DNA of 64,000 bases from an uncultured Litoreibacter sp. (GTDB taxonomy: Bacteria; Pseudomonadota; Alphaproteobacteria; Rhodobacterales; Rhodobacteraceae). Made by a program: the position numbers and the translations under genes. Shown here piece after piece: positions 39,952-57,165 of the stretch. Location of the stretch: assembly GCA_947504205.1 (NCBI GenBank), contig CANNGL010000005.1, positions 54,751 through 118,750 of the forward strand, given 5' to 3'. The first letter of the stretch is position 1; every line of letters begins with the position of its first letter. Below the pieces are notes generated by a model, which was given only the letters and a program-made list of their open reading frames with translations, was not told the DNA's origin and made no database searches.

Positions 39952-40041
39952 GGAGACGTGGCCGAGTGGTCGAAGGCGCTCCCCTGCTAAGGGAGTAGGC
40001 CCGGAAGGGTCTCGAGGGTTCGAATCCCTTCGTCTCCGCCA
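39952..40041 (+). tRNA. tRNA-Ser (anticodon GCU), class II with a long variable arm
   Basis: Acceptor GGAGACG/CGTCTCC, D-loop GCCGAGTGGTCGAAGGC, and anticodon loop CTGCTAA. The long variable arm is GGCCCGGAAGGGTCTC. The T-arm is GAGGG-TTCGAAT-CCCTT, and CCA is encoded. Length 90 nt. Confidence 0.93.
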
Positions 40042-41673: not shown

Positions 41674-42513
41674 TTAGAACCCAAGACGCGACAAGGGGCC
41701 AACGATCCGTCGGTACACCATGGGCGGTAGAATATCCTGAACGAATGCGCGTCGTGCGACCCGACGATCCGTCTCATCAACAGAGCCCGGGCGCGGTTTG
41801 AACAGCGTCGTATGCGACTTGCGCGAAGCATCCCAAGTTGCAGTGTAATAATAGAGCGCGATGGACTGACGAGGCTCGCCATCGGGATGGTTCACCGGCT
41901 CGGGATTGCCGTGGAATGTGTCCGAACCAGTCGAAAAACAAACCATCCGGTTATAAGTTGGCACAAAGCTGGCCTCCTTCCGGGTCATCTGTTTGTCCCA
42001 GATTTCAAAAGACCCGCCCCAGTCTTCCTGCCAATTCTTGTTGAGGTAAATCAGCACATTCAGGCGGCGCTCAAGGTTCATCTTCTTGTGCAGGTTGAAA
42101 TCCGCATGAATGTCGAGATGCCCGCCATTCAATGTCTTGTGAATCCCTGCTCCCATAAAATAGGGATCGGGAATAAGACCCGTAATGCCGGTCATCTCTT
42201 CCAGAAATTGAAGGAACGGACGCGAGTTAAAGGCATAAAACAAGCTCTTGGTGAAAGCAGGCAAGCGTTCCGGCACATAAGAGGATTTCAGATTTTCTTG
42301 CGCCCGCTCGAACGATGAGACGGCCTCAGGAAGCTCTGTTAGATCTTCGCGCACACGCTCCACGATATCTTCAGGAAGAAAGTTATCGATGCATATATGA
42401 TTGTAAGGGCCTGCGCTTTGGTAGGATTCCGCATAGCCCGCCCCGATATCTCGGGCAGCTTCTGTCGAAATCAGCAGACTTTCTGGATCAAGCGGATAAG
42501 CAGTTTTCGTCAC
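41674..42513 (-). CDS. 2OG-Fe(II) oxygenase superfamily protein (prolyl-hydroxylase-like)
   Basis: 279 aa. It has an HxD facial-triad candidate GGHLDIHAD, a distal His in TFHGNPEPV, and the typical RRLNVLIYLN strand. Confidence 0.72.
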   Translation of the reverse strand: MTKTAYPLDPESLLISTEAARDIGAGYAESYQSAGPYNHICIDNFLPEDIVERVREDLTELPEAVSSFERAQENLKSSYVPERLPAFTKSLFYAFNSRPFLQFLEEMTGITGLIPDPYFMGAGIHKTLNGGHLDIHADFNLHKKMNLERRLNVLIYLNKNWQEDWGGSFEIWDKQMTRKEASFVPTYNRMVCFSTGSDTFHGNPEPVNHPDGEPRQSIALYYYTATWDASRKSHTTLFKPRPGSVDETDRRVARRAFVQDILPPMVYRRIVGPLSRLGF

Positions 42514-42826
42514 AATACATTTCTCCAGTCACACTATACTCTGGGTCCCGCAGGGTTTGTATCAGAGTCTCTACAGCAGTTTCTATACAAACCCATCCTC
42601 GTTGCGAGTTGTGGTTACGAAATCTGTCAAATTTAAGTAAGATACCGGGACTATTTTTAGGAAGACCTTTTTCCAAGCCAAACACACTCGTGCAAGGATC
42701 AAGTCTTGCGTTTGCATCACTTGGCCTGATCCGGCATATGATTGGCCATGGTTTCATAAAACCTCACTTATTGATTTATTAAGCGCCCCGCATTGATCAC
42801 GATCAATGCCAGAATGAGATAGTATA

Positions 42827-43684
42827 ATGTTGAGATTTGTTATTCCGATCCGCCACCCCAATCAGGTCACTGATATTGAAGAGCAAAGGGGGATACTGCG
42901 TCAGACAATTGACTGTTTGAAGTTACAAAAGGGTGATCAATGGCAAGCGATCATCGTTGCCAATCCCGGCACACCTATACCAGATCTGCCTCCACAAATT
43001 TCGGTAAAATGGGTCGATATTGCTCCGAATGAAGGCTTTGCCAAAGCAACAACACGTCAGGAGTTTTTCGAAGTTGTCCGCGATGATAAGGGCCAGCGGC
43101 TGCTTGAAGGCGTCCGGGACATTGGACCTGACGACTACGTTATGGTTGTCGACGATGATGATTTGATCGACCCGTCCTTGGCAAGTTTCGTGCTTGATCA
43201 ACCCCTGAGAAATGGTTGGTTTGTCGAAAATGGGTATCGTTGGAACACCACTACGGGGGAGGTTCTGGATATGAGTGGGTTTCATATGTCGTGCGGAACT
43301 TGCCTGATTGTTCGGGCAGGCTACTACCAGTTTTTTGACCAGCTCAAGACCGGCGTGTCACAAGAGGCGATTCAAGAATTGGGGTCACATCGACAAGTCT
43401 TCGATAGAGCGACCCTTGAAGGCACCCCGTTTGCGGAAATTCCATTTCGAGCTGCAGTTTATCGCACCGCACATCAAACGTCGGTCATTAGTGACATCAG
43501 CAGTCGAAAGCTTGCGATATGGAATCGGGGGCTCAGAGGAACCGTTCATATGTTGCGCTACAACTTAGGGAAGTTGAAACGTCGCTTGGCTGGCGATCAA
43601 GGCCCAGAGCCTGAAGCGAAAGCAGAGCCCACTGTAAGAACAGAGGACTTTCTGATTGAAAAATACGGAATTACAATCGACTAG
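42827..43684 (+). CDS. Putative GT-A fold glycosyltransferase
   Basis: 285 aa. It has N-terminal FVIPIRH and an acidic DxD-type stretch (YVMVVDDDDLIDP). The family is not resolved. Confidence 0.5.
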   Translation: MLRFVIPIRHPNQVTDIEEQRGILRQTIDCLKLQKGDQWQAIIVANPGTPIPDLPPQISVKWVDIAPNEGFAKATTRQEFFEVVRDDKGQRLLEGVRDIGPDDYVMVVDDDDLIDPSLASFVLDQPLRNGWFVENGYRWNTTTGEVLDMSGFHMSCGTCLIVRAGYYQFFDQLKTGVSQEAIQELGSHRQVFDRATLEGTPFAEIPFRAAVYRTAHQTSVISDISSRKLAIWNRGLRGTVHMLRYNLGKLKRRLAGDQGPEPEAKAEPTVRTEDFLIEKYGITID

Positions 43685-43807
43685 GACATAATCACAAACT
43701 AGGCTTCCAACAGAAATTCCGGCCCGTGAGGACAAAGTACGTTATAGCCATGATGAAAAAGACCTGATATTCAACCTCCCGTGCTGGGTGGGATTTAGGG
43801 GTTTGAG

Positions 43808-44740
43808 ATGAAAAAGTTTTTTGCACCTTCTGCAGATACCGAGCTGAACAGCTGGCTCAGTGACAATATGGATGCGGTCCAGCAAGGCTTGTCAGACGAA
43901 GGTTTGGTGTTGTTCCGTGGGTTTGACACCGAAGACGCGGCGACGCTGAAAGGCACCTTGTCGCTCTTTGGGGCTGAGCCGATGACCGATGCGCGTTGGT
44001 CTACGCCACGCTCTTCTGTTGGGGAGGGGGCCTTTACCTCGACAGAATATCCGGCAGAGCAATGGATCGTTTTGCATTCCGAGATGTCTTATGCCCGTGC
44101 CTGGCCGCGCCTGCTGTTGTTCCAATGCAAGATCGCTGCGGAAACCGGTGGCGCCACAACCATCGCCAACCTGAAAGATGTCAGCACCGCTTTGGGCGAT
44201 ATTGTAGACGAATTCCACGAGCGCGAAGTGATCTATCAGCGGAACTTCCGCAAAGGTCTCGATATTCCGTGGCAAAATGCCTTTGGCACAGAAGACCCTG
44301 ATGAAGTGCTTGAGATCGGTAAGCGCAACGGGTTGGAGGTCGAATGGCAGGCCGACGGCACCCTGAAGACTGCGCAACAGGCGCAGGGCGCCATCCACGG
44401 CCCTGATGGGGCGATCTGGTTCAACCAGGCGCATCTGTTCCACCCCTGCCAGCTGCCAGCGGCCACACGTCAGGCACTGGTTGCCGCTTTAGGTGCAGAT
44501 GGTCTGCCGCGAAATGCTGTCTTCGGTGATGGGGAACCCATCCCTGATGCGACGATCGAACGTATCCTTCAAGTTCTCAGTCAGCATACCGAGAATATCG
44601 ATTGGCAGGATGGTGATCTGTCGATCATTGATAATATGCGTTGGATGCATGGTCGCTCGCCGTTTACCGGAACCCGCAAAGTTCTCGCGGCGATGGGCGT
44701 TCATCATGATGAAGCTGCTCTCACGCCGCTCTTTCAATAA
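43808..44740 (+). CDS. TauD/TfdA-family Fe(II)/2-oxoglutarate dioxygenase (clavaminate-synthase-like)
   Basis: 310 aa. The metal-triad candidates are HSE in VLHSEMSY and a distal His in IDNMRWMHGRSPF, the typical DN.R..HGR ending of this family. It ends 11 nt before the adenylation-carrier-acyltransferase gene. Confidence 0.8.
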   Translation: MKKFFAPSADTELNSWLSDNMDAVQQGLSDEGLVLFRGFDTEDAATLKGTLSLFGAEPMTDARWSTPRSSVGEGAFTSTEYPAEQWIVLHSEMSYARAWPRLLLFQCKIAAETGGATTIANLKDVSTALGDIVDEFHEREVIYQRNFRKGLDIPWQNAFGTEDPDEVLEIGKRNGLEVEWQADGTLKTAQQAQGAIHGPDGAIWFNQAHLFHPCQLPAATRQALVAALGADGLPRNAVFGDGEPIPDATIERILQVLSQHTENIDWQDGDLSIIDNMRWMHGRSPFTGTRKVLAAMGVHHDEAALTPLFQ

Positions 44741-44751
44741 GGTAGATATCT

Positions 44752-47700
44752 TTGGCTGCTGACCCGCCCGGATTGATTGAGGTTCGTGCCTTTTCCGGTG
44801 CCAACTCGCGCGCATATTTGTCGGCAGTCTTCGCTGCCTACCGCGACGGCGTCGTCGTTTTGGCCCTGCCGCCGGGATCAGGATCAAAAACGGTGCCGGG
44901 CACTCGCGTGCAAGAACGCAAGACATTCGACGATGATCCAGGCTGGTTTGACGAAAGCCTGGAGCTGATTACCAGCGACGATCCTGCGCAGATTGCTTTT
45001 TCGTCTGGGACGACGGGACGGCCAAAGGCGCTGTTGCTGACGCATCGCGCTTTGTCGGATGTGGTGGTGCGGATCAATGATGCTATGGGCGTCGATGACA
45101 GTATCCGGGAATATATCGGTGTCCCTGTCACGTTTTCCTTTGGCTTTGGCCGCGCCCGCGCCGTGGCAGCCGCAGGGGGCAAATCCTATCTTCCAAAAAA
45201 CGGATTTGATCCGGCAGAAATCGCCCGCATGGCTAAAGCCGGTGAGATCAATGCAATCTCTGCAGTTCCCACGCTCTGGCGGGTGGTTCTGGCAAATCCC
45301 GACGTCATCGGGGAGGCGGGTGCTACCATCCGCTGGATCGAAATTGGCAGCCAGTATATGGCCGCCGATGAGAAAGAGGGGCTGAAAAACCTCTTTCCCA
45401 ATGCGAAAATCGTCCAGCATTACGGTCTTACGGAGGCCTCCCGCACGACCCTTCTCGATATCAGTTCCACCAAGGGGGGAGCTCTGGAAAGCGTGGGGCA
45501 GACCACTGGAGAGGTCGAAATAGCACTGAATGAGGAGGGTGTAATCCGGACCCGTGGCCCTCATCTGGCATTGGGTCTGGTCTCAGGGGCAGGCATCAAG
45601 CCCTTTACTGATGCCGATGGCTGGCTGACCACGTCGGATCGAGGCCGGATCGAGGATGGATATCTTTATTATGAAGGGCGCACGGATGAACTGATCAATT
45701 CCGGTGGCCTAAAAATTGATCCCACCCAGTTTGAACAAAAGCTCAGTGCGGCCCTTGGCGTGTCCGACGCCGTGGCTGTTGGGCGTTTACCCGATGATCT
45801 GCGTGGAGAGAAGGTGCTGATCGTCACGCAGCAGGCTGCAGGATTGAAGCGGACGGATATAGAAGCTGCCGCGCAGAAGATTGCAACAGATCTTGGCCTG
45901 ACAGGATCAGGCTCTTTCGCTCTACGTGACGTGGCTGAAATCCCGCGAACCGCTACAGGAAAAGTGCAACGCGCGAAGCTCGCCGATTTGCCGGACATTG
46001 GCGCGTTGGAGGCCGCGGCGGAGCAGAGCACAGCCCGTCCGACGGAACAGGGAATGGGCAAGGCCGAGGAATTGCAGGCTCTTTGGGCCGAGGTTCTTGG
46101 TATTGATCATGTAGCCCTGAATCAAAGCTTCTATGATCTAGGCGGCGATAGTCTGTCGGCCCTGACTGTCATCATGCGCATGGAAGCGCTCGGACTGGAG
46201 CCTGAGATTGCCCGCGGTATCTTCGACGGCAAGACAATCGCAGAAATTACCGGCGTATCAGCGGAGCCGATATCAGAAGCTTCGCATCCAGATGTCTCGA
46301 CGCAGTCCGTTTCTGCTTCCGCTGATCCGCGTGCGGCGGAATTGCAGGCGATGTGGGCGGAGGTTTTGGGCGTCGAGGATGTTGCTCTGGACCAGAGCTT
46401 TTATGATCTGGGCGGTGACAGTTTGTCTGCCCTTACGGTCATCATGCGTATGGAGGCCCTGGGACTCGACCCCGAGACCGCCCGCGGCATCTTCGATGGC
46501 AAGACAATTGCAGAAATTACCGGAACATCATCCGCCCCGGCAGATAGGGCACCATCACAGGATACTCCAACACCATCCGCTTCTACCACAAACAACCCCA
46601 GGGCTGTGCAGTTACAAACTCTTTGGGCCGAGGTTTTGGGTGTTGAAAATGTTGCGTTGGACCAGAGTTTTTATGATTTGGGCGGTGATAGCCTGTCTGC
46701 TTTGACTGTAATCATGCGTATGGAAGCCCTCGGTCTAGAGCCTGAGATTGCCCGCGGTATCTTCGATGGCAAGACAATCGCAGATCTCGCTGGGGTAGAT
46801 ACTGATCCTGCGCCGGTTGCACAGCCTGCTCCAGAGACATCACCTGAAACTTCCGCCGCGCCCGTGACGCCGACAGATACTGCGAAGGATGGGATCACAC
46901 TTAATCTGGCAGAGGCCATGAATTCTGTGCATGCCACGCGGGGTGTTCTGGTTCTCTGGGTGGTTATGGTGCACTGGCTGCCCGGTGTCTTGGCACGGCT
47001 TACCGACAATGCCGTCAGCATATATGAGAGCCTAATCCCGGCGCTTCGCTTCGGCACGCCTGGTTTTGCGATGGTTTTCGGCATGGGGTTGGGCGCACTT
47101 GGTATTGCTCAATATACTCGCAGCAAGGCGCAATTTCTCAAAGGTTCTCGGTTCAATACCCGACTGATCGTTGCAGGTGTGCTGATCTACGCCGCCGTGA
47201 AATTTGCAATGTTGTGGAGTGCGGGACGTCTTGGCGAGCCATTGTTGCCATCGGTGCTGTTTTACTCAGCCATCACCTACTATGCCTTAGCCATGTTGAG
47301 TCTGCCGGTGATCTTGTGGGTCTTGACCCGTGGATCGAACCGCATGTTGACCATCCTGGCGACAGCTGTGGCCTGTATGATCATCCATGAGGTTCTGTTC
47401 GCCGCAATCGCCCATACCAAACCGGGTGGCATTCTGGAACTCTTCAAGGTGCTTCTGACCGCAAAATACGGGTTCTTCCGCATGTCGGGCTTTGTCATGA
47501 TCGGGGTCGCGATCGGTTATATGTACCGCGCGCATCACAAGACCCCCGGCATTGCACAGCATTTAGCGTTGGCTGGCGTGACCTCCATTAGCTTCGGGTT
47601 CTTCACGTTGTACAAGGTACAACCAGAGGTCTTCATGGATGGTTTTGGACGCGTTCTACCATGGCATCTGATGATCTATGCCGGAGCGGCATTGCTGATC

Positions 47701-47958
47701 CTGTCTGGGTTTTCTGTGCTCAACAGGGCGGGAGGTGCGGCTGTATCCCGGCCTTTGCAGACACTTAATGCTTTCGCGATTGCCAGCGGTATCCTGGCGC
47801 TGCCCATCTTTGTCGGCCATGAAATCGTGATCCCGGCCAAAGACCTGTTGACCAACCTTGGTTTGCCCGAAGGACTTGCGCTGATTGCGATGCTCGGTCT
47901 GTTTTTAGGAGCCCTCGGCTGGGGCTATATAAGGCTTTTCCGGTTTCTGCTTCGCTAG
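44752..47958 (+). CDS. Fusion protein: adenylate-forming (AMP-binding) domain + 3 tandem carrier (PP-binding) domains + C-terminal 10-TM acyltransferase-3-like membrane domain
   Basis: 1068 aa with a TTG start. The A-domain motifs are SSGTTGRPK (45001-45027), QHYGLTEA, GWLTTSDRG, GRTDELINSGGLKIDP and PRTATGKVQR. FYDLGGDSLSALTVIMRMEALGL occurs three times, with serine attachment sites at about aa 467, 557 and 647. From about aa 715 there are ten hydrophobic helices, starting HATRGVLVLWVVMVHW, an RG..(x)..H entry like Acyl_transf_3/OpgC. Confidence 0.85.
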   Translation: MAADPPGLIEVRAFSGANSRAYLSAVFAAYRDGVVVLALPPGSGSKTVPGTRVQERKTFDDDPGWFDESLELITSDDPAQIAFSSGTTGRPKALLLTHRALSDVVVRINDAMGVDDSIREYIGVPVTFSFGFGRARAVAAAGGKSYLPKNGFDPAEIARMAKAGEINAISAVPTLWRVVLANPDVIGEAGATIRWIEIGSQYMAADEKEGLKNLFPNAKIVQHYGLTEASRTTLLDISSTKGGALESVGQTTGEVEIALNEEGVIRTRGPHLALGLVSGAGIKPFTDADGWLTTSDRGRIEDGYLYYEGRTDELINSGGLKIDPTQFEQKLSAALGVSDAVAVGRLPDDLRGEKVLIVTQQAAGLKRTDIEAAAQKIATDLGLTGSGSFALRDVAEIPRTATGKVQRAKLADLPDIGALEAAAEQSTARPTEQGMGKAEELQALWAEVLGIDHVALNQSFYDLGGDSLSALTVIMRMEALGLEPEIARGIFDGKTIAEITGVSAEPISEASHPDVSTQSVSASADPRAAELQAMWAEVLGVEDVALDQSFYDLGGDSLSALTVIMRMEALGLDPETARGIFDGKTIAEITGTSSAPADRAPSQDTPTPSASTTNNPRAVQLQTLWAEVLGVENVALDQSFYDLGGDSLSALTVIMRMEALGLEPEIARGIFDGKTIADLAGVDTDPAPVAQPAPETSPETSAAPVTPTDTAKDGITLNLAEAMNSVHATRGVLVLWVVMVHWLPGVLARLTDNAVSIYESLIPALRFGTPGFAMVFGMGLGALGIAQYTRSKAQFLKGSRFNTRLIVAGVLIYAAVKFAMLWSAGRLGEPLLPSVLFYSAITYYALAMLSLPVILWVLTRGSNRMLTILATAVACMIIHEVLFAAIAHTKPGGILELFKVLLTAKYGFFRMSGFVMIGVAIGYMYRAHHKTPGIAQHLALAGVTSISFGFFTLYKVQPEVFMDGFGRVLPWHLMIYAGAALLILSGFSVLNRAGGAAVSRPLQTLNAFAIASGILALPIFVGHEIVIPAKDLLTNLGLPEGLALIAMLGLFLGALGWGYIRLFRFLLR
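46069..46794 (+). repeat. Three in-frame tandem repeats, period 270 bp (90 aa), encoding the carrier domains
   Basis: The 62-aa cores begin at 46069, 46339 and 46609 (ELQALWAEVLG / ELQAMWAEVLG / QLQTLWAEVLG). The cores are nearly identical at the protein level. Many synonymous differences separate them at the DNA level. The linkers between them are divergent and Ser/Pro/Ala/Thr-rich. Confidence 0.92.
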
Positions 47959-47967
47959 GGGCAAGCC

Positions 47968-49581
47968 CTAGGTCTTGGGTGCATGCGCTTTGGCGACGAT
48001 ATCTGCGACCCGCAAAGCATTTGCCGCAATGGTCAGGCTCGGGTTCGTGCCACCACTCGTCGGCATGAAGGAACTGTCTACCACGTATAAATTGTCCAAC
48101 ATGTGTGCTTTGCAATTGGCATCCAGCACGCTGGTTTCGGGATCATCCCCAGCTTTGCATGTACCACAGGGATGGCCATAGTTCAGGGTCGCACGGTGGC
48201 TGAGAGGTAAAGAGTAAAGAGGTTTGAACCTTGCACGTAACAGTGTTTTCAGTTTGTGCGCTCGCTCAAGAAGCTCTGGGCGTATCGTGTAGTGAAATCG
48301 TATCCCCGATGCGCCATCAGGGTCCAACACGACACGGTTATCACGATAAGCATAGTCTTCGACGATGGTCGTGAAGACGGTCGCTTCTCCCAGAACACGG
48401 GACGCCAACCAAGCAGGGATCCGCAATAGTTGTCGGATCAAGGGTAGTTTACGAAGCGGGCTTTGATCGAAAGACAGACGCAGACTGTAAAGCACGTTCC
48501 CAAAATTAGCCGTTTGACCTGCAGACTGCAATTCACCGTACTTTTTCCCGTCGTAGCTGTAGAAATCCCGGATCGAGAGAGTTTTTGTTGGCCCTTTCTT
48601 CGAGTGTTGACCCCTCGGCCAAACGGCAATGGGGTCGCTCGCGTGAAACATAAGATTACGACCAACAAGATCGTTTTGATTTGCCAATCCGTCAGGCCAG
48701 CTTTCGTTGGTTGAACGCAAAAGAAGAGCGGGCGAAAAGTATGCCCCAGCCGCTAGAATTATAAGGGGTGCCGAAATTTGGCACTCTGTTTCCTCGTGTT
48801 GAATAATGACAGTGTGCGCAGCATTGGCGTTTGCCTCAATTCGAAGAACTTCGGCTTCGGCACAAAGCTTCACTTGGCCCGATTCAAGCGCAGGATCTAG
48901 CAGCGTGTTACGCGCATCTCGTTTACAGCCGCTCGGACAATAAGAGCCTAAACACTCCTTACATCCCGGTTCGTAGCCAATTCCGCTGTGCAAGCGGTAG
49001 GGGTGTAACCCTCCTTCCGTGAAGGATTTCAGAAAATACGCGTCACGCGCGCACATTTCAGGGGGTTCCGGCAAATGTGCTCCGGGGTCCGGACGAAGCG
49101 GGTCTTGCGTCCCGTGTACGCCAAAAAGCTGCTCTGCTTGGGTATAATAGGGCGCAATATCCTCGTAGGAAAAAGGCCACGAGATCTCTTTGCCATCAGG
49201 TGTCTTCTGTGGTGCAAAATCTTCTGGGCGCAGCCGATGAAGGGCTGCAGCATAAAGCGTGGTCGAGCCACCCGCACCAGAACCCAAGGGCGCCCAGATG
49301 TTCATATCGGCCCCGTCCAACCGTCCTGAGATTTGTGTAGGCCAGCGTCCATTCTCAAGACGTGTTGCCGGATCAGACATTTCCCGTGCGACAGAGCTAG
49401 CGGCTTGAAAGGCGCTGCGACCTTTCTCAATGACCAGAACTCGATAACCTTGCCGACTAAGTGACCAGGCTGCCGCGGAACCTCCCATCCCCGCACCGAT
49501 AATGAGGCAATCCCAATCTTGGTTTGCAGCTGCGGAAGCTGAGATCTTTTTGCTGGGCGTGTCGCTTCGTGTCATGGGCAT
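47968..49581 (-). CDS. GMC-family FAD oxidoreductase
   Basis: 537 aa with the N-terminal FAD fold DCLIIGAGMGGSAAAWSL. The C-terminal GMC region is YGHPCGTCKAG ... LYVVDSSFMPTSGGTNPSLTIAANALR. Confidence 0.85.
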   Translation of the reverse strand: MPMTRSDTPSKKISASAAANQDWDCLIIGAGMGGSAAAWSLSRQGYRVLVIEKGRSAFQAASSVAREMSDPATRLENGRWPTQISGRLDGADMNIWAPLGSGAGGSTTLYAAALHRLRPEDFAPQKTPDGKEISWPFSYEDIAPYYTQAEQLFGVHGTQDPLRPDPGAHLPEPPEMCARDAYFLKSFTEGGLHPYRLHSGIGYEPGCKECLGSYCPSGCKRDARNTLLDPALESGQVKLCAEAEVLRIEANANAAHTVIIQHEETECQISAPLIILAAGAYFSPALLLRSTNESWPDGLANQNDLVGRNLMFHASDPIAVWPRGQHSKKGPTKTLSIRDFYSYDGKKYGELQSAGQTANFGNVLYSLRLSFDQSPLRKLPLIRQLLRIPAWLASRVLGEATVFTTIVEDYAYRDNRVVLDPDGASGIRFHYTIRPELLERAHKLKTLLRARFKPLYSLPLSHRATLNYGHPCGTCKAGDDPETSVLDANCKAHMLDNLYVVDSSFMPTSGGTNPSLTIAANALRVADIVAKAHAPKT

Positions 49582-49632
49582 GAGCCAAAATCTCAGGACT
49601 GGAAAATCACAACGTGTCGCTAGGCCTATAAA

Positions 49633-52600
49633 TTATGTCACCGCAATATCAACCTGAACCGTAACGTAGCCTCCCCGCCCATCGTGAAGATACTGCCAAA
49701 AGACATCTGGTCCGGTGTATCTGTCATGTGGCGTATAGGTGAGTTGACCCGTATCGAGATTTCGATCCAGATATCCGTTTTGGGGTGCCAGAAAATCACG
49801 GTCCAGTTTTAACGTCGTGCCTGGTTCGCTCGTGGCGCCGATCAACGGCTCGATGATCACCGAGGAGCCTGCAGCCACAGTCTCGATCAGTGTCGCCCGG
49901 GTGGGCGCCACAGCGGACGGCACCCATGTTCCGTTCAAAGTATAGGCCGACATGTTGCCCGTGCATTTGATTGCGACCATATGCTTGACCGTCAGAGCAC
50001 TCACCTGATCCGATGCATGGACGGGGATTACAACAATGTTGATGGTCTCGCCATTATCATCGTATTCCCAATAGCCCTCGGCGGCTGCGTAATTTTGATA
50101 TTGTGGGGATGCAAACCAATCGCTCCCCAAATCAATTCCGATATCATCCCAGCTTTTAGGGAAGGGGGACGTGCCAAGACTGGTTGTTTTTGTTCCAGAT
50201 CCCGTGACGTTGACTGCCGAGCCAGTCCATTCACCCATGATGAACGGCGTATTGATGGTTGGATATGAAGTCAGAGACCCTGGCAGAGCGGTGGACGCGC
50301 CGACAAAGGTTACGTCCGCTGGGGCGCTCGTGACCTGAGCGTTCGTCAGGTCCTCAAAAGAGACCCCAGGCACCACGCTATTTGCATCAGTGCAATCAAT
50401 CACCATAAACATCGGGTTGTTGGTGTTGTTAAACGTATCGGGATCGGCCTGACCACTGTCCAACTTGATGTAGTAAGGCCGCGCAAAGCCTTCACAATGG
50501 GCATTCACGATCGCGACCTGCACCGCATTTCGACCAATGATGATGCCACGTTCCCGGCCGCCTAAATCATTGTTCTGAGTGTCGATCGAGTAGCATTTCC
50601 AGTTGGTCAGAGCGTAGTTGCCAACATATTGCACCTCGCCCCCGTATTCGACGGCAACAGCCGTCAGGTTTTGGATATTGATGTTAATGTCATGATACTG
50701 AGCGGCACCGTTCTTGGCGACAAAAATTGCCTCATTGCAACCCATTGCGAAGTTATCGCTGTGGTGAATGATCGGGTAATCTTCAACGTCAATCACAGAT
50801 CCGGAAGAAGAATAAATCTTGGTCAGATCACCGAGATCAACATGGTCCCGCAGTAAGCGTTGGGTTGGCGCGATCCCGTTATTATTGGAGCGGTGATAGA
50901 AAACATAGGCAAAGCTCGCGCCATAGACCGCGTTGCGATTGCTGACCAGAGCACGACCGCGGAAAAACATGCCATAGCCGGTGCGTGCGAAATCGCCCCA
51001 AAGTCCTTGCGCAAATTCAGCATTCTTTGGATGTGTGTTAGAGATACCGCCCGGATTGATGCAGCCGATAACGACATTGTCGTTCCAAGAACCGATCTCA
51101 TTGCCGCTTTCTGAGACAATGCCCGCACCGGTAAAGCCATAGACTACGTTGCGATCGATTTCGACCTCGCAATCATGATGCACCACGTTCCAGCCCGGTG
51201 CATTCCGGATCACACAATCGACCAGCTTTGCCTTCTTGGCATTAAGGAAGCCAACCCTATGAAAATGTACCTCGTAACGCGATTGCAGATTGGCATCTGC
51301 GGTCATCGGGACGGTGGTCAAAGTACCGCTCTGGCCAGGCTCGACATAGGTGAAATCAACACCGTTACGCACCCCGGCAGGGCGGGTTTTGTCGGTCCTG
51401 CCAAGATCACGGAACTCAACACCCCAGATATCCGGCTCCGCCATCATATGCATGAACATGGTGTGCCCGCGACGATGCACGAGATCAGTGGATGTCTCGG
51501 AGCGAATGATGATGTTACGGGTCAGATGCGCTATGTGCGGCTGCTTGTCTGACGTGTCGGTCTGTTCTGAATTATGATGGTCGTGGTCATACAGAAGCGG
51601 GTCGGTCCAAGAAATCGTTTTGCCATTGATCGCGGCAATCACTCGCTCCTCGTCTTCACGGATCGAGGTTCCATTGTTGAGCCTGAATCTGGTGCCGGGA
51701 ATGACAACGGTATCACCGACCTGCCAATTGGTCGGTTGCTCAGCCAGAACAAGCGACATCGCACCTGCCATAGGGGCGCCATCAACCTCAGTACGCAGCG
51801 CATGCGTTCGTTGCGCCCCAAACATGATCACTTGTCCAAGTGAGACCAGTCCACGTCCCAGTAAGCTCGGATCTCGGGCGATATCTATATCTGTGGCAGA
51901 GAGCGGATCGATCCGGTAAGCCCGGTTCGAAAAACGGATTTCAGCAATATGCGCGGCTGGTAATCGCTCTGCGATGGACTGACCTACGATCAGGGCACTG
52001 CCCTGCGTGCCAACAAGGGTTTCGACCAACAGATCCGTGGTGTGATCCATTGCCCAGCTTAAGGTGCCGTCCACCCTGATCCGGTCTAATCGTGGACTGC
52101 TCGCAACATCATATGTCACCACTTGGCCGATGGGGATCAGCACAACAGCCCCGGCCCCCGGTACTTCGCCGACATCCCAGGTTTCCGGGTCAGACCACGT
52201 GCCATCTGCAATCGCGCTATGGGTGACGTCTGTATGCGGGATCAACTCGAGAACAGCATCATCCATCTGTGTATGCGCAGCGTCGGCGTGAGCCATATGA
52301 ATGCGTAGCGGCGGGGTTTCCAAATCCCCTTCTGCGCAGGTCACGATACACGAAATGTTCTGTCCGGCTGCGGGCGCTGAATAGCTAGGCCCAGTCTCGC
52401 CAATGATTTGCATCCCATCGGCCATCCACTGATAGCCCGACACATTTGTCAGCATCGACGTATCAACTGACAGCGAGCTGCCCATGCGCGCGGATCCAAT
52501 AATTTTGGGCCGCTGAACAGCACTTGCGATAACGCCCCATCGAGCAACAGACCCTGTGCGGGTGGTTCCGGCTTGTGTCACTGACATCGTCACCGCGGAT

Positions 52601-52635
52601 GCCTGAGCAAACCCCTTAAATCTGATATTTGCCAA
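49633..52635 (-). CDS. Large G8-domain / right-handed beta-helix protein with an N-terminal Ig-like module. Putative polysaccharide-modifying or depolymerising enzyme.
   Basis: 1000 aa. The G8-like start is WSDPETWDVGEVPGAGAVVLIPIGQVVTYDV, about aa 147 (near nt 52197 downward). The central region has beta-helix-like periodicity (NAPGWNVVHHDCEVEIDRNVVYGFTGAGIVSESGNEIGSWNDNVVIGC). The N-terminal module carries YQWMADGMQIIGETGPSY. There is no obvious signal peptide. Confidence 0.62.
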   Translation of the reverse strand: MANIRFKGFAQASAVTMSVTQAGTTRTGSVARWGVIASAVQRPKIIGSARMGSSLSVDTSMLTNVSGYQWMADGMQIIGETGPSYSAPAAGQNISCIVTCAEGDLETPPLRIHMAHADAAHTQMDDAVLELIPHTDVTHSAIADGTWSDPETWDVGEVPGAGAVVLIPIGQVVTYDVASSPRLDRIRVDGTLSWAMDHTTDLLVETLVGTQGSALIVGQSIAERLPAAHIAEIRFSNRAYRIDPLSATDIDIARDPSLLGRGLVSLGQVIMFGAQRTHALRTEVDGAPMAGAMSLVLAEQPTNWQVGDTVVIPGTRFRLNNGTSIREDEERVIAAINGKTISWTDPLLYDHDHHNSEQTDTSDKQPHIAHLTRNIIIRSETSTDLVHRRGHTMFMHMMAEPDIWGVEFRDLGRTDKTRPAGVRNGVDFTYVEPGQSGTLTTVPMTADANLQSRYEVHFHRVGFLNAKKAKLVDCVIRNAPGWNVVHHDCEVEIDRNVVYGFTGAGIVSESGNEIGSWNDNVVIGCINPGGISNTHPKNAEFAQGLWGDFARTGYGMFFRGRALVSNRNAVYGASFAYVFYHRSNNNGIAPTQRLLRDHVDLGDLTKIYSSSGSVIDVEDYPIIHHSDNFAMGCNEAIFVAKNGAAQYHDININIQNLTAVAVEYGGEVQYVGNYALTNWKCYSIDTQNNDLGGRERGIIIGRNAVQVAIVNAHCEGFARPYYIKLDSGQADPDTFNNTNNPMFMVIDCTDANSVVPGVSFEDLTNAQVTSAPADVTFVGASTALPGSLTSYPTINTPFIMGEWTGSAVNVTGSGTKTTSLGTSPFPKSWDDIGIDLGSDWFASPQYQNYAAAEGYWEYDDNGETINIVVIPVHASDQVSALTVKHMVAIKCTGNMSAYTLNGTWVPSAVAPTRATLIETVAAGSSVIIEPLIGATSEPGTTLKLDRDFLAPQNGYLDRNLDTGQLTYTPHDRYTGPDVFWQYLHDGRGGYVTVQVDIAVT

Positions 52636-52640
52636 AATAT

Positions 52641-53540
52641 TTACCCTATGGTGATGGCGCCACTTTCGACGCTGCGTGTTCCGGAAAGACCCGTGGTCTG
52701 TTCAATAATGCTGATTTGAGTGCCGGTATCTGTCGGCGATATGGTCAAGGTCGAAGCTGTCGCGCCTGCAATGGCGGTTCCATCCCGGAGCCATTGGATA
52801 TTTGCTTGGAATGTGTTGTCAGCGCTCTCACATATCCAAAGACCTGGACGAGCGGTTAAAATTTGCCCGGGGAATGGTGTTCCAGAGATACTCGGGCGCG
52901 CAACATTTATCGCACCTTCCAATAGGTTGGTGGTATTCAGCGGCGCGCCGTCTGTGTCCTGAGTATACTGACCATCGAAAGCCGTTGCGCCCGAAATATC
53001 GAGGGCAAAATCGGCCTGACCTAAATCATCAATCTGCAGGCGCCCTGTATCTGTTTCGTAGATCGAGAAAAGCGGTGCCACCATCTGCTGCTGGCTTTCA
53101 ACAAACCGCGTGCCCAAGGCATCCTGCGCAGTTTCGATGACGCTGATTTGGGCATCCGCCTCATTTGCCGTCAACAGTAGGTTGTCAGAGGTCGCGCCAG
53201 AAAGCGGAACACCATCTTTCATCCATTGGTAAGATATCAAAGGCTCTCCGCCTGCGGTTTGATATCCCCAAAGGCCCGGCATCACCGAAAGGGTCGCGCC
53301 CGGTTCGGCAATCCCGATCAGGCGTGCAGGAACAAGATTGACCGGGCCACCAGATAAGTCAGCCGAGACGAGCGTATAAGTCCCCGCCATGGTCTGCGGC
53401 GTCATGATATCAATTGATAACACCTCACCCTGCGCCTCGATGGTGAAGGTGTTATCAGGGTTTGTGTTCAGATTCAGTGTCTGCATAACCGCAGAATGCG
53501 GAGAACTGGCGCCCAACCGGAGCCCTAAATTTATATCCAT
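52641..53540 (-). CDS. Ig-like repeat protein (two YQW..DG..I.GAT modules)
   Basis: 299 aa. It contains two copies of a ~70-aa module (ISYQWMKDGVPLSGATSDNLLLT and ANIQWLRDGTAIAGATASTLTIS) also found at the N-terminus of the downstream 1000-aa protein. It ends 5 nt before that gene. Confidence 0.5.
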   Translation of the reverse strand: MDINLGLRLGASSPHSAVMQTLNLNTNPDNTFTIEAQGEVLSIDIMTPQTMAGTYTLVSADLSGGPVNLVPARLIGIAEPGATLSVMPGLWGYQTAGGEPLISYQWMKDGVPLSGATSDNLLLTANEADAQISVIETAQDALGTRFVESQQQMVAPLFSIYETDTGRLQIDDLGQADFALDISGATAFDGQYTQDTDGAPLNTTNLLEGAINVARPSISGTPFPGQILTARPGLWICESADNTFQANIQWLRDGTAIAGATASTLTISPTDTGTQISIIEQTTGLSGTRSVESGAITIG

Positions 53541-55357: not shown

Positions 55358-56323
55358 ATGTCTCACAAAATCGCGGTCTCAATCATCAATTTCCGTACTG
55401 CCGATTTGACCATCCAAGCTGTACAATCTGTGCGTGATGATCTGACTGGAATCGATGCAGAAATCATTGTGGTCGACAACCTGTCGGGGGACGGGTCTGC
55501 CGAGAGAATTGAAGACTGGATCACACAACAGAACGATCCGCGCCTTTCTTTGGTGCTATCTGATAAGAATACCGGCTTTTCGGGGGGGCACAATCAGGGG
55601 TTTGCCGCCAGCGATGCTGAATTTCTGTTGGTGTTGAATTCTGATGCAATTGTTCGACCCGGCTTCTTCAAGGCTCTGCTGGAGACGGCTGAGACCAATC
55701 CAAAGGCAGGATTAATCGCCCCTCGTCTGGAAGGTGAAGACGGTGTCGCACAAACCAGCTGCTTTCGGTTCCACACACCACAATCCGAGCTGATAAGAAG
55801 TGCCAAGACAGGTTTCATCTCCAGACTTCTGCGCAGGTACGACGTCCCTCTAGCTCCAGAACCCGATCCCTCTCAGATCGAATGGGCGAGCTTTGCCTGC
55901 ATCTTGCTTCGTACTGAAATGATCCGCGATATAGGTCCCATGGATGAAGGCTATTTTCTCTATTTTGAGGACAGTGAGTATTGCCTGCGCGCGCGTAGGG
56001 CCGGATGGCATATAGCCTATGCTCCAAATGCGGTTGCCGTCCATTTTCGTGGCGGGAGTGGACCGGTCAAGGCCTTGGCCAAAGCCGGGAAGCGCCTGCC
56101 GCGGTATTTTTACAGCTCACGCAGCCGCTTTTTCTATCAGGCTCATGGCAAAATCGGCCTTTGGTCTGCCAATTTATGTTGGTATGTCGGCCGCGCATTA
56201 GCCGGATTGCGTGCTCTGGTTGGCAAACCAACACCCCCGATGGTCGAGCAGGAATATCGTGATATCTGGATCAATGCTTTCAACCCACTTGGGCCCCGAC
56301 GCGCACCAGGAGATTCAGAGTGA
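55358..56323 (+). CDS. Glycosyltransferase family 2
   Basis: MSHKIAVSIINFRTADLT ... IIVVDNLSGDGS ... DKNTGFSGGHNQG ... FLYFEDSEYCLRA, the typical GT2 (rhamnosyltransferase-like) pattern. The ATG is 2 nt after the upstream stop. Confidence 0.85.
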   Translation: MSHKIAVSIINFRTADLTIQAVQSVRDDLTGIDAEIIVVDNLSGDGSAERIEDWITQQNDPRLSLVLSDKNTGFSGGHNQGFAASDAEFLLVLNSDAIVRPGFFKALLETAETNPKAGLIAPRLEGEDGVAQTSCFRFHTPQSELIRSAKTGFISRLLRRYDVPLAPEPDPSQIEWASFACILLRTEMIRDIGPMDEGYFLYFEDSEYCLRARRAGWHIAYAPNAVAVHFRGGSGPVKALAKAGKRLPRYFYSSRSRFFYQAHGKIGLWSANLCWYVGRALAGLRALVGKPTPPMVEQEYRDIWINAFNPLGPRRAPGDSE

Positions 56324-57165
56324 GTTTGCCAGATTTCATGATTATCGGCGCAATGAAATGCGGAACCTCAACCCTGCAGGCACAACTCGCAGCCCAACAG
56401 GGCGTGTTCATGACAACGCCCAAGGAACCCAATTTCTTCTCCGATGATGCGGAATATGCAAAGGGCTTGGATTGGTATCGCGGTCTCTACGATGCAGCGG
56501 ACGCGCATGCATTGAGGGGCGAGGCCAGTACACATTATACTAAACTACCCACCTATCCGCATACGCTGCCCCGAATGACCCAGGTCCTCGAAAGCCAAAA
56601 GCTGATCTACATGATCCGTAACCCAATCACCCGGGCGATCTCTCATTACATCCATGAATGGACCGAAGCGCGCATGGGCCATGATCCGATTGCGGCATTC
56701 CAAACCGCGCCTGAGTTGATCGACTATGGGCGTTATGCCTATCAAATCACTCCATACATCGAAGCTTTTGGCTCAGAGCATATTCACCTCACCAGTCTGG
56801 AACAACTGAAGGCTGACCCCCAAGGAGAGCTCAGCCGCATCGGCGCCTTCCTCGATTTGCCACACCAAGCCATTTGGAATGATGAGATCGGGGCACAAAA
56901 TGTCTCTGCGGCGCGGGTGCGCAAGTTTCCCCTGCAAGGCCTGCTCATCGACAATCCTGTGGCTCAGACTTTGCGGCGAGTGCTGGTTCCTAAAGCCCTA
57001 AGGACGCGTATTCGAGAGGCCCGTACGTATGGGGAACGTCCCGAGCTGCCCGACACGCTTCTTCGGGATATGGAAAACCGCTTTGCCGCGGATCATGACG
57101 AGCTTGCAGCACTCTTCCCTGACCACCCAGCACTGACCCTTTGCTATCCGTTTCTACAAAAATGA
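56320..57165 (+). CDS. PAPS-dependent sulfotransferase
   Basis: 281 aa. FMIIGAMKCGTSTLQAQL is a 5-prime-PSB loop, and IYMIRNPITRAISHY is a 3-prime-PB region. The GTG start overlaps the upstream TGA (GTGA). Confidence 0.85.
   Translation: MSLPDFMIIGAMKCGTSTLQAQLAAQQGVFMTTPKEPNFFSDDAEYAKGLDWYRGLYDAADAHALRGEASTHYTKLPTYPHTLPRMTQVLESQKLIYMIRNPITRAISHYIHEWTEARMGHDPIAAFQTAPELIDYGRYAYQITPYIEAFGSEHIHLTSLEQLKADPQGELSRIGAFLDLPHQAIWNDEIGAQNVSAARVRKFPLQGLLIDNPVAQTLRRVLVPKALRTRIREARTYGERPELPDTLLRDMENRFAADHDELAALFPDHPALTLCYPFLQK

Follow-up and report, generated by a model that had tools for sequence, protein, structure and literature searches.

A SyrP-like TauD-family dioxygenase paired with an adenylation–carrier–membrane acyltransferase fusion in a Litoreibacter polysaccharide locus

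Results

The dioxygenase gene and its product

We analyzed a 64,000-nucleotide stretch of DNA from an uncultured Litoreibacter sp. (contig CANNGL010000005.1, positions 54,751 to 118,750; hereafter the window). The gene under study encodes a putative Fe(II)/2-oxoglutarate (2OG) dioxygenase and lies directly upstream of a gene for a fusion protein that combines an adenylation domain, carrier domains and a membrane domain. The open reading frame (ORF) of the oxygenase occupies 43808-44740 on the forward strand, starts with ATG, contains 310 codons and stops with TAA at 44738-44740. Its features are as follows:

43808..44740, + strand: TauD/TfdA-family Fe(II)/2OG dioxygenase gene, 310 residues, SyrP-like branch associated with non-ribosomal peptide synthetases (NRPSs) (ORF, PF02668, AlphaFold2 model, Foldseek, two trees)
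44075..44083, + strand: H90-S91-E92, the first two ligands of the 2-His-1-carboxylate iron triad (codons CAT TCC GAG; SqoD alignment)
44645..44677, + strand: M280-H281-G282-R283...R290, with the third iron ligand H281 and invariant arginines that are candidate 2OG binders

The Pfam search matched residues 12-293 to PF02668 (TauD) with an E-value of 1.4e-30 and a score of 107.5 bits, against a cut-off of 27. The HSE and MHGR motifs, which the initial annotation had proposed as iron-triad candidates, could both be read at the codon level, the latter as M280-H281-G282-R283 at nucleotides (nt) 44645-44656. The ligands proved invariant in an alignment of 102 homologues, where H90, E92, H281, R283, R290, and T117 were all fully conserved. 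In the TauD family, Arg and Thr residues bind the C5 carboxylate of 2OG, a role for which R283, R290, and T117 are candidates. H90, E92, and H281 aligned with the crystallographic metal triad of SqoD (His115/Glu117/His308). The AlphaFold2 model reached a mean predicted local distance difference test score (pLDDT) of 94.8 and a predicted template-modeling score (pTM) of 0.91. A Foldseek search with this model returned At3g21360 as the best match (TM-score 0.80), followed by PvcB, TauD, AtsK, ScoE, and Rv0097. The probability was 1.00 for PvcB, TauD, AtsK, and ScoE, and the fold is the TauD-type double-stranded beta-helix. Judged by its sequence and its model, the protein looks like a working enzyme. 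Its translation contains no signal peptide, which points to the cytoplasm, where the adenylation and carrier domains of its neighbor should also reside.

Placement within the TauD family

Outside its small close clade, the oxygenase shared 37-46% identity with its nearest relatives. The DNA around these relatives was screened with condensation-domain, MbtH-protein, and carrier-domain queries where at least 12 kb of sequence was available. A condensation domain or an MbtH gene was present at 67 of 71 genome loci and, among the matches listed, at 33 of the 34 metagenome loci that reached this length. The metagenome relatives among the matches listed were all at most 45% identical, and they were used for context and not for defining the close clade. 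Five loci had neither gene; one of them was placed beside a FAAL-ACP-KS hybrid synthase and another beside a radical-SAM gene. A 41%-identical relative was found in an ornibactin-type locus with an extracytoplasmic-function (ECF) sigma factor, MbtH, a 'syringomycin biosynthesis enzyme', and iron transporters. The 43%-identical Pseudomonas relative lay between a class-III aminotransferase (pvdH)/TonB receptor and an adenylation–thiolation–condensation (A-T-C) synthetase, an arrangement matching the one reported for PP_4222, the SyrP homologue of the pyoverdine cluster.

Covalent links between such oxygenases and NRPS domains were also frequent. Among the longer homologues, 38 of 39 joined PF02668 to NRPS condensation, adenylation, or thiolation (C/A/T) domains, and none was a single TauD-A-T-AT3 polypeptide. 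On cyanobacterial plasmids, the homologous TauD domain and a condensation domain formed one fused protein. Genomes of Marinobacterium, Marinomonas, and Pseudidiomarina encoded a free-standing copy alongside a second copy inside a 3,070-residue synthetase. The search of these three genera for a SqoD orthologue yielded only the siderophore-type stand-alone or NRPS-fused TauD domains and remote TauD paralogues. For P0171, a 680-residue Roseitalea protein of 41% identity, only PF02668 was recorded (E = 1e-111), and this protein may be a tandem double TauD.

Phylogenetic calculations with FastTree (109 sequences) and IQ-TREE (LG+C20+F+G4, 53 sequences) placed the oxygenase in a 99%-supported clade with members from NRPS and polyketide synthase (PKS)-NRPS contexts. 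In both trees, this clade sat inside a wholly NRPS-linked radiation. The anchors were ornibactin- and pyoverdine-type homologues identified by their context, while the sequences of SyrP and KtzO stood outside the trees; SqoD and At3g21360 were compared by PDB sequence and fold searches only. The sub-clade linked to the fusion carried specific residues at R63 (lid loop), V88 and M280 (flanking the metal ligands), and L254. Its closest outgroup was a 399-residue TauD-like protein with an N-terminal extension in a non-NRPS context (L006:8471-10897), whose neighbors were a radical-SAM gene and several proteins without a family match.

The closest solved sequences were At3g21360 (PDB 1Y0Z, 1e-28) and SqoD (PDB 9YUT, 6.9e-21), at ~26-30% identity. 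Repeating the search with an ornibactin-type NRPS hydroxylase gave the same two best matches with better scores, and we therefore discarded these hits as a functional clue. The PDB held no deposited structure from the NRPS-linked branch. Both At3g21360 and SqoD share the triad positions with the oxygenase; in contrast, Gln120 and Trp253, which hold the sulfosugar in SqoD, correspond to Tyr95 and Leu224 here, in an alignment that is of low confidence near residue 224. E. coli TauD, whose gene is located in tauABCD, has the same superfamily fold (Foldseek 1e-10, TM ~0.5). It gave no tblastn match to the oxygenase, shared 12-15% identity with it, and was separated by a branch of 6.3 substitutions/site in the tree. 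The source genome contains a separate, stronger TauD-profile match (153 bits) on another contig. Near the oxygenase, the search for sulfonate uptake or catabolism genes and for a tauABC-type transporter found none, the neighbors being glycosyltransferases and the fusion.

On these sequence comparisons, the oxygenase is a member of the carrier-protein/NRPS-linked (SyrP/OrbG-like) branch and not of taurine or sulfonate catabolism. The initial annotation had likened it to SyrP- and KtzO-type enzymes, and this likeness held in that the protein nests among NRPS-context relatives, with TauD remote. The branch includes the stand-alone aspartyl beta-hydroxylases: SyrP of syringomycin, the OrbG type of ornibactin, the PP_4222 type of pyoverdine, and PtcA of potashchelin. 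The oxygenase shares with them PF02668, the HxE...H triad, 41-43% identity to the context-identified members, and a stand-alone format of ~310-340 residues beside an A-T unit. It differs in its partner, which has no condensation domain and is an A-T3-membrane acyltransferase with an A domain lacking the Asp that binds the alpha-amino group. The long stem of its clade, the residues R63, V88, L254, and M280, and a presumed product destined for a glycan instead of a peptide also set it apart. The TauD domains embedded in siderophore NRPS modules (cupriachelin, taiwachelin, serobactin, and potashchelin PtcB type) are homologous (30-47%) and are likewise situated beside carriers, but unlike the free-standing oxygenase they are covalently fused to condensation-like domains. 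These embedded domains always adjoin Asp-selective A domains (PMC8949500).

The partner fusion and its predicted substrate

Downstream of the oxygenase, a 1068-residue ORF opens at TTG 44752. The features of this region are as follows:

44741..44751, + strand: spacer of 11 nt from the oxygenase stop to the fusion start, with an AAGG Shine-Dalgarno-like element overlapping the stop codon (sequence)
44752..46050, + strand: adenylation (ANL) domain of the fusion, N-terminally short (PF00501, residues 68-275 matching profile positions 154-382)
46069..46794, + strand: three tandem carrier domains of the peptidyl carrier protein (PCP) type, each with an LGGDSLSAL phosphopantetheine-site motif (PF00550, three stretches, E = 5.2e-34; repeats in the translation)
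46894..47955, + strand: C-terminal polytopic membrane domain, AT3-like acyltransferase (hydrophobic C-terminal 350 residues; orthologues)

The 11 nt separation claimed for the two genes was exact when counted from TAA to TTG 44752. A second TTG at 44773 is an alternative start, and homologue alignments begin at residue 7, so that the gap amounts to 11-32 nt. No terminator-like site was seen between the two genes, where the promoter/terminator scan was uninformative. For the predicted A-T-T-T-AT3 architecture, the AMP-binding domain, the three PP-binding domains, and the C-terminal membrane domain were confirmed. The AT3 assignment of the last domain did not come from Pfam, which made no such call on the window's fusion; PF01757 was recorded only on two relatives. 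Orthologues of the membrane domain in loci L004, L005, and L168 were 43-59% identical.

In every fusion examined (window, L168, L005, L193, L169, and L194), the adenylation domain is short at its N-terminus. The SSGTTGRPK P-loop of the fusion is at residues 84-94, which places it ~80-90 residues closer to the N-terminus than its counterpart in MatB or NRPS A domains, and a further segment of ~55 residues is absent.

Amino-acid-activating adenylation domains read F-D-x-S at a position where Asp235 binds the alpha-amino group. We aligned the fusions with NRPS adenylation domains from the retrieved loci and inspected this motif. All of the fusions read [F/Y]-S-F-G (FSFG in the window), while the NRPS domain from locus L022 read F-D-A-A. 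The best solved relatives of the fusion adenylation domain in the PDB sequence search were an oxalate-CoA ligase and a malonyl-CoA synthetase (~1e-20). Given the missing Asp235 equivalent and the resemblance to solved oxalate and malonate ligases, the tethered substrate is, judging from sequence, probably a carboxylic acid and not an amino acid. Partners of SyrP-type enzymes have an A domain specific for an alpha-amino acid (Asp or Glu), a feature that the fusion adenylation domain does not display. The initial annotation had suggested a hydroxylated amino or carboxylic acid as the decoration; the carboxylic half of this suggestion is favored, and the amino-acid half loses ground with the absent Asp235 equivalent. 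The adenylation pocket motifs were alike in fusions with and without an accompanying oxygenase, which suggests that both kinds of fusion load one and the same unhydroxylated acid, with oxidation as an optional later step. A conversion of a dicarboxylate to a hydroxy-dicarboxylate would be a guess, consistent only with the Asp and Glu substrates of the characterized relatives.

Conservation of the gene pair

The oxygenase gene was directly 5' of the fusion gene in every close relative with readable context: L004 of a Rhodobacter metagenome-assembled genome (MAG; 80% identity), L168 of genome G328 (84%), and L005 of a Parvularculaceae MAG (61%). The gaps were ~9, 11, and 21 nt across L004, L168, and L005. 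In the Sphingomonadaceae genome G955 (locus L193), a 45%-identical oxygenase was located 9 nt upstream of a 943-residue fusion, the membrane domain of which is 25% identical to that of the window. This oxygenase joined the oxygenase clade of the window with 100% support. Counting the 11 nt in the window, the pair is spaced by 9-21 nt in five lineages (window, L004, L005, L168, and L193). The pairing described for the window was thus kept in all close relatives that could be read, and in G955 as well.

The surroundings of the pair were variable. In L168, it was flanked by an AT3-SGNH acyltransferase, a flippase-like gene, and a GT4 glycosyltransferase. In L005, the flanks were a polyhydroxybutyrate (PHB) depolymerase, a sodium:alanine symporter, an outer-membrane protein, and a malate dehydrogenase, with no polysaccharide or sulfur genes nearby. 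Since the flanks differ among L004, L168, L005, and the window, the two genes move as a unit. The pair in the window is placed beside glycosyltransferases; the proposed link to polysaccharides was weakened by the occurrence of the pair outside polysaccharide loci in L005.

Seven more oxygenase–fusion pairs were noted, including those of Cognatiyoonia sediminum and Roseobacter sinensis, with co-location judged from contigs of equal size. The context analysis did not extend to the metagenomic homologues P0044, P0047, P0048, P0052, P0054, P0056, and P0058 or to the fusions of ~860-900 residues on long contigs. Genes like P0058 were absent from 350 genomes of the actinobacterial order. Scanning the genome collection for the oxygenase yielded two close relatives; among 200 other Rhodobacteraceae genera, two had a match and only one of these was close. 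The fusion was present in 3 of 400 other Rhodobacteraceae. With the AT3 domain as the query, it was found in 0 of 400 other Alphaproteobacteria and in 0 of 150 others from the order of the Parvularculaceae MAG. Sampling 300 Sphingomonadaceae revealed six distant fusions.

Some fusions had no such oxygenase. This was the case for the G267 fusion, which is part of an exosortase locus in a 99%-complete genome, and for those of G1058 and G1015. G1215 had weak TauD-like matches only, one interrupted by a stop codon, on another contig than the fusion. The oxygenase clade appears to be tied to the fusion, and the fusion family can do without the oxygenase, as expected of an optional tailoring enzyme.

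A 33%-identical TauD-like gene in the Rhodobacteraceae genome G175 (L174:6141-10258) overlaps the start of a gene for a 1063-residue A-T-thioesterase-TPR protein. An integrase and a transposase adjoin this pair, which looks like a minimal combination of an oxygenase and a single module on a mobile element.

The second oxygenase and the wider locus

One further oxygenase gene is found on the opposite strand:

41674..42513, − strand: second, unrelated 2OG-Fe(II) oxygenase, prolyl-4-hydroxylase-like, a neighbor outside the conserved cassette (PF13640 2OG-FeII_Oxy_3, E = 1.7e-17; HLD and FHG present)

We queried L004, L005, and L168, leaving L193 aside, and found an orthologue (66%) near the pair only in L004. 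An Atlas search with this protein returned only uncharacterized PF13640 clusters. Two oxygenases in one exopolysaccharide locus had been considered unusual; the second one does exist as a PF13640 protein, but it does not belong to the conserved cassette.

The G+C content dips to 0.45-0.50 at 41900-43700, compared with ~0.55 on either side. The dip spans the PF13640 oxygenase and a 285-residue protein without a Pfam match that contains a DDDD (DxD-like) motif. A tRNA-Ser(GCT) gene at 39952-40041 is directly upstream of the polysaccharide genes; the same-genus genome G231 has no fusion, and the locus may be an island inserted beside this tRNA gene. On the reverse strand, genes for a GMC oxidoreductase, a 1000-residue G8/beta-helix protein, and an Ig-repeat protein (47968-53540) converge on the end of the fusion, and a weak homologue of the Ig-repeat protein was detected near the pair in L168. 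A sulfotransferase gene belongs to the same locus (56320-57165, 11 kb away). In G955, CysNC-like (sulfate adenylyltransferase/adenosine 5'-phosphosulfate kinase) and CysQ-like genes are directly beside the pair on the other strand (L193:12489-15133).

Discussion

Given the observed family, fold, catalytic residues, phylogenetic position, and conserved pairing, we propose that an active, cytoplasmic dioxygenase of the SyrP/OrbG-like branch is co-transcribed and works with the fusion, oxidizing its tethered acyl group. We assign this reading a probability of roughly 0.6. The adenylation domain would activate a carboxylic acid that probably lacks an alpha-amino group and may be a small dicarboxylate, and it would load this acid onto the three PCP-type carriers in thioester linkage. 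There, the dioxygenase, working in trans, would oxidize the bound acyl group, with hydroxylation of a carbon close to the thioester as the most likely outcome. Finally, the membrane domain would hand the hydroxy-acyl group to an exported glycan, the presumed acceptor. Within the family, hydroxylation of a residue tethered to a T domain has precedent (PMC8949500; PMC7100376), and both papers cite Singh et al. 2008 for SyrP. By analogy with this branch precedent, and because the fusion contains three PCP-type LGGDSL carriers, we infer that a carrier-bound acyl group is a more likely substrate than the free acid.

Several observations weigh against this proposal. The partner adenylation domain has no Asp235 equivalent and, to our knowledge, every characterized SyrP-type enzyme acts on an aminoacyl-S-PCP. 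The stem leading to the fusion-linked clade is long (~1.0 substitutions/site), and specificity or chemistry may have changed along it. Fusions without the oxygenase exist, and the oxygenase could equally pre-process a free acid. Seven members of the clade, three of them actinobacterial, contribute no gene context, and the solved structures and assayed enzymes all come from outside the clade.

The strongest alternative is that the dioxygenase hydroxylates the free acid, or an amino acid, in the cytoplasm, and that the adenylation domain then selects the hydroxylated product. AsnO and VioC supply NRPS modules in this manner, by hydroxylating free amino acids. Gene adjacency alone does not separate a free from a tethered substrate, and the fusions without an oxygenase show that one is dispensable for the loading and transfer machinery. 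The similarity of the pocket motifs in fusions with and without the oxygenase, however, argues that the same unhydroxylated acid is loaded in both. The oxygenase also falls outside the clavaminate-synthase-like branch: ClavSyn_CS1, its best NCBIfam match, scored 37.7 bits against a cut-off of 450 and covered only 40 residues toward the C-terminus (248-287). Moreover, relatives of the oxygenase are fused inside NRPS modules beside carrier domains, and the family has been reported to act on tethered residues (PMC8949500). We consider prior hydroxylation of the free acid unlikely.

An even less probable option keeps the tethered substrate and changes the reaction to a desaturation, an epoxidation, or an oxidative cleavage following hydroxylation. 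Oxidative outcomes vary in the TauD family, as exemplified by the C-S cleavage in SqoD, and the structural matches include the isonitrile-forming ScoE and Rv0097. The long stem and the clade-specific V88, M280, and R63 near the metal ligands or the lid would allow for a changed reaction. Nevertheless, the nearest characterized relatives by context are beta-hydroxylases, and the full HxE...H triad excludes halogenation. A TauD-, AtsK-, or SqoD-like dioxygenase for a sulfonate, a sulfate ester, or a sugar, tied to a sulfated polysaccharide and only incidentally adjacent to the fusion, is very improbable: SqoD is the second-best solved relative and sulfur-related genes accompany the pair in the window (the sulfotransferase) and in the Sphingomonadaceae (cysNC-, cysQ-like), but the PDB resemblance is uninformative in light of the ornibactin-type control, the sulfosugar-holding residues of SqoD are replaced, E. 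coli TauD is too remote for tblastn, the pair is kept in L005 away from sulfur or polysaccharide genes, and no sulfotransferase homologue was found in L004, L005, or L168.

The proposed action on the tethered acyl group resembles the D-alanylation system DltA-DltC-DltB, in which adenylation, a carrier-bound thioester, and a membrane acyltransferase serve the decoration of a cell-surface polymer. The order of adenylation, carrier thioester, and membrane acyltransferase is common to both. Unlike the fusion, the Dlt system is split over separate proteins; its transferase is of the MBOAT family, the acid that it activates is an amino acid, and it includes no enzyme for oxidative tailoring.

The kind of enzyme is known; what is new is a well-supported sub-clade tied to a fusion that is found mostly in polysaccharide loci. 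We know of carrier-dependent TauD-family hydroxylases only from non-ribosomal peptide and siderophore assembly lines. In the papers searched, we found no description of such an oxygenase partnered with an adenylation–carrier–membrane acyltransferase fusion. More tentatively, and with the odds somewhat against it, the two genes may constitute a portable cassette that brings NRPS-style on-carrier tailoring to glycan decoration. Here, an enzyme of SyrP lineage would be retargeted to a non-amino acyl-S-PCP, for example turning a dicarboxylate into a malyl- or tartronyl-type group. On this more tentative reading, some marine and soil alphaproteobacteria would carry hydroxy-acyl substituents on their surface polysaccharides, introduced by a route not yet described. 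Across the genomes searched, the cassette was rare and patchy; therefore, its ecological weight is probably modest. If our main proposal is true, the substrate range of the SyrP lineage would extend to non-amino acyl thioesters. It would also provide a pathway, open to testing, by which bacterial exopolysaccharides could acquire hydroxy-acyl groups, as well as a compact two-gene system for studying how a trans-acting oxygenase recognizes tandem carrier domains.

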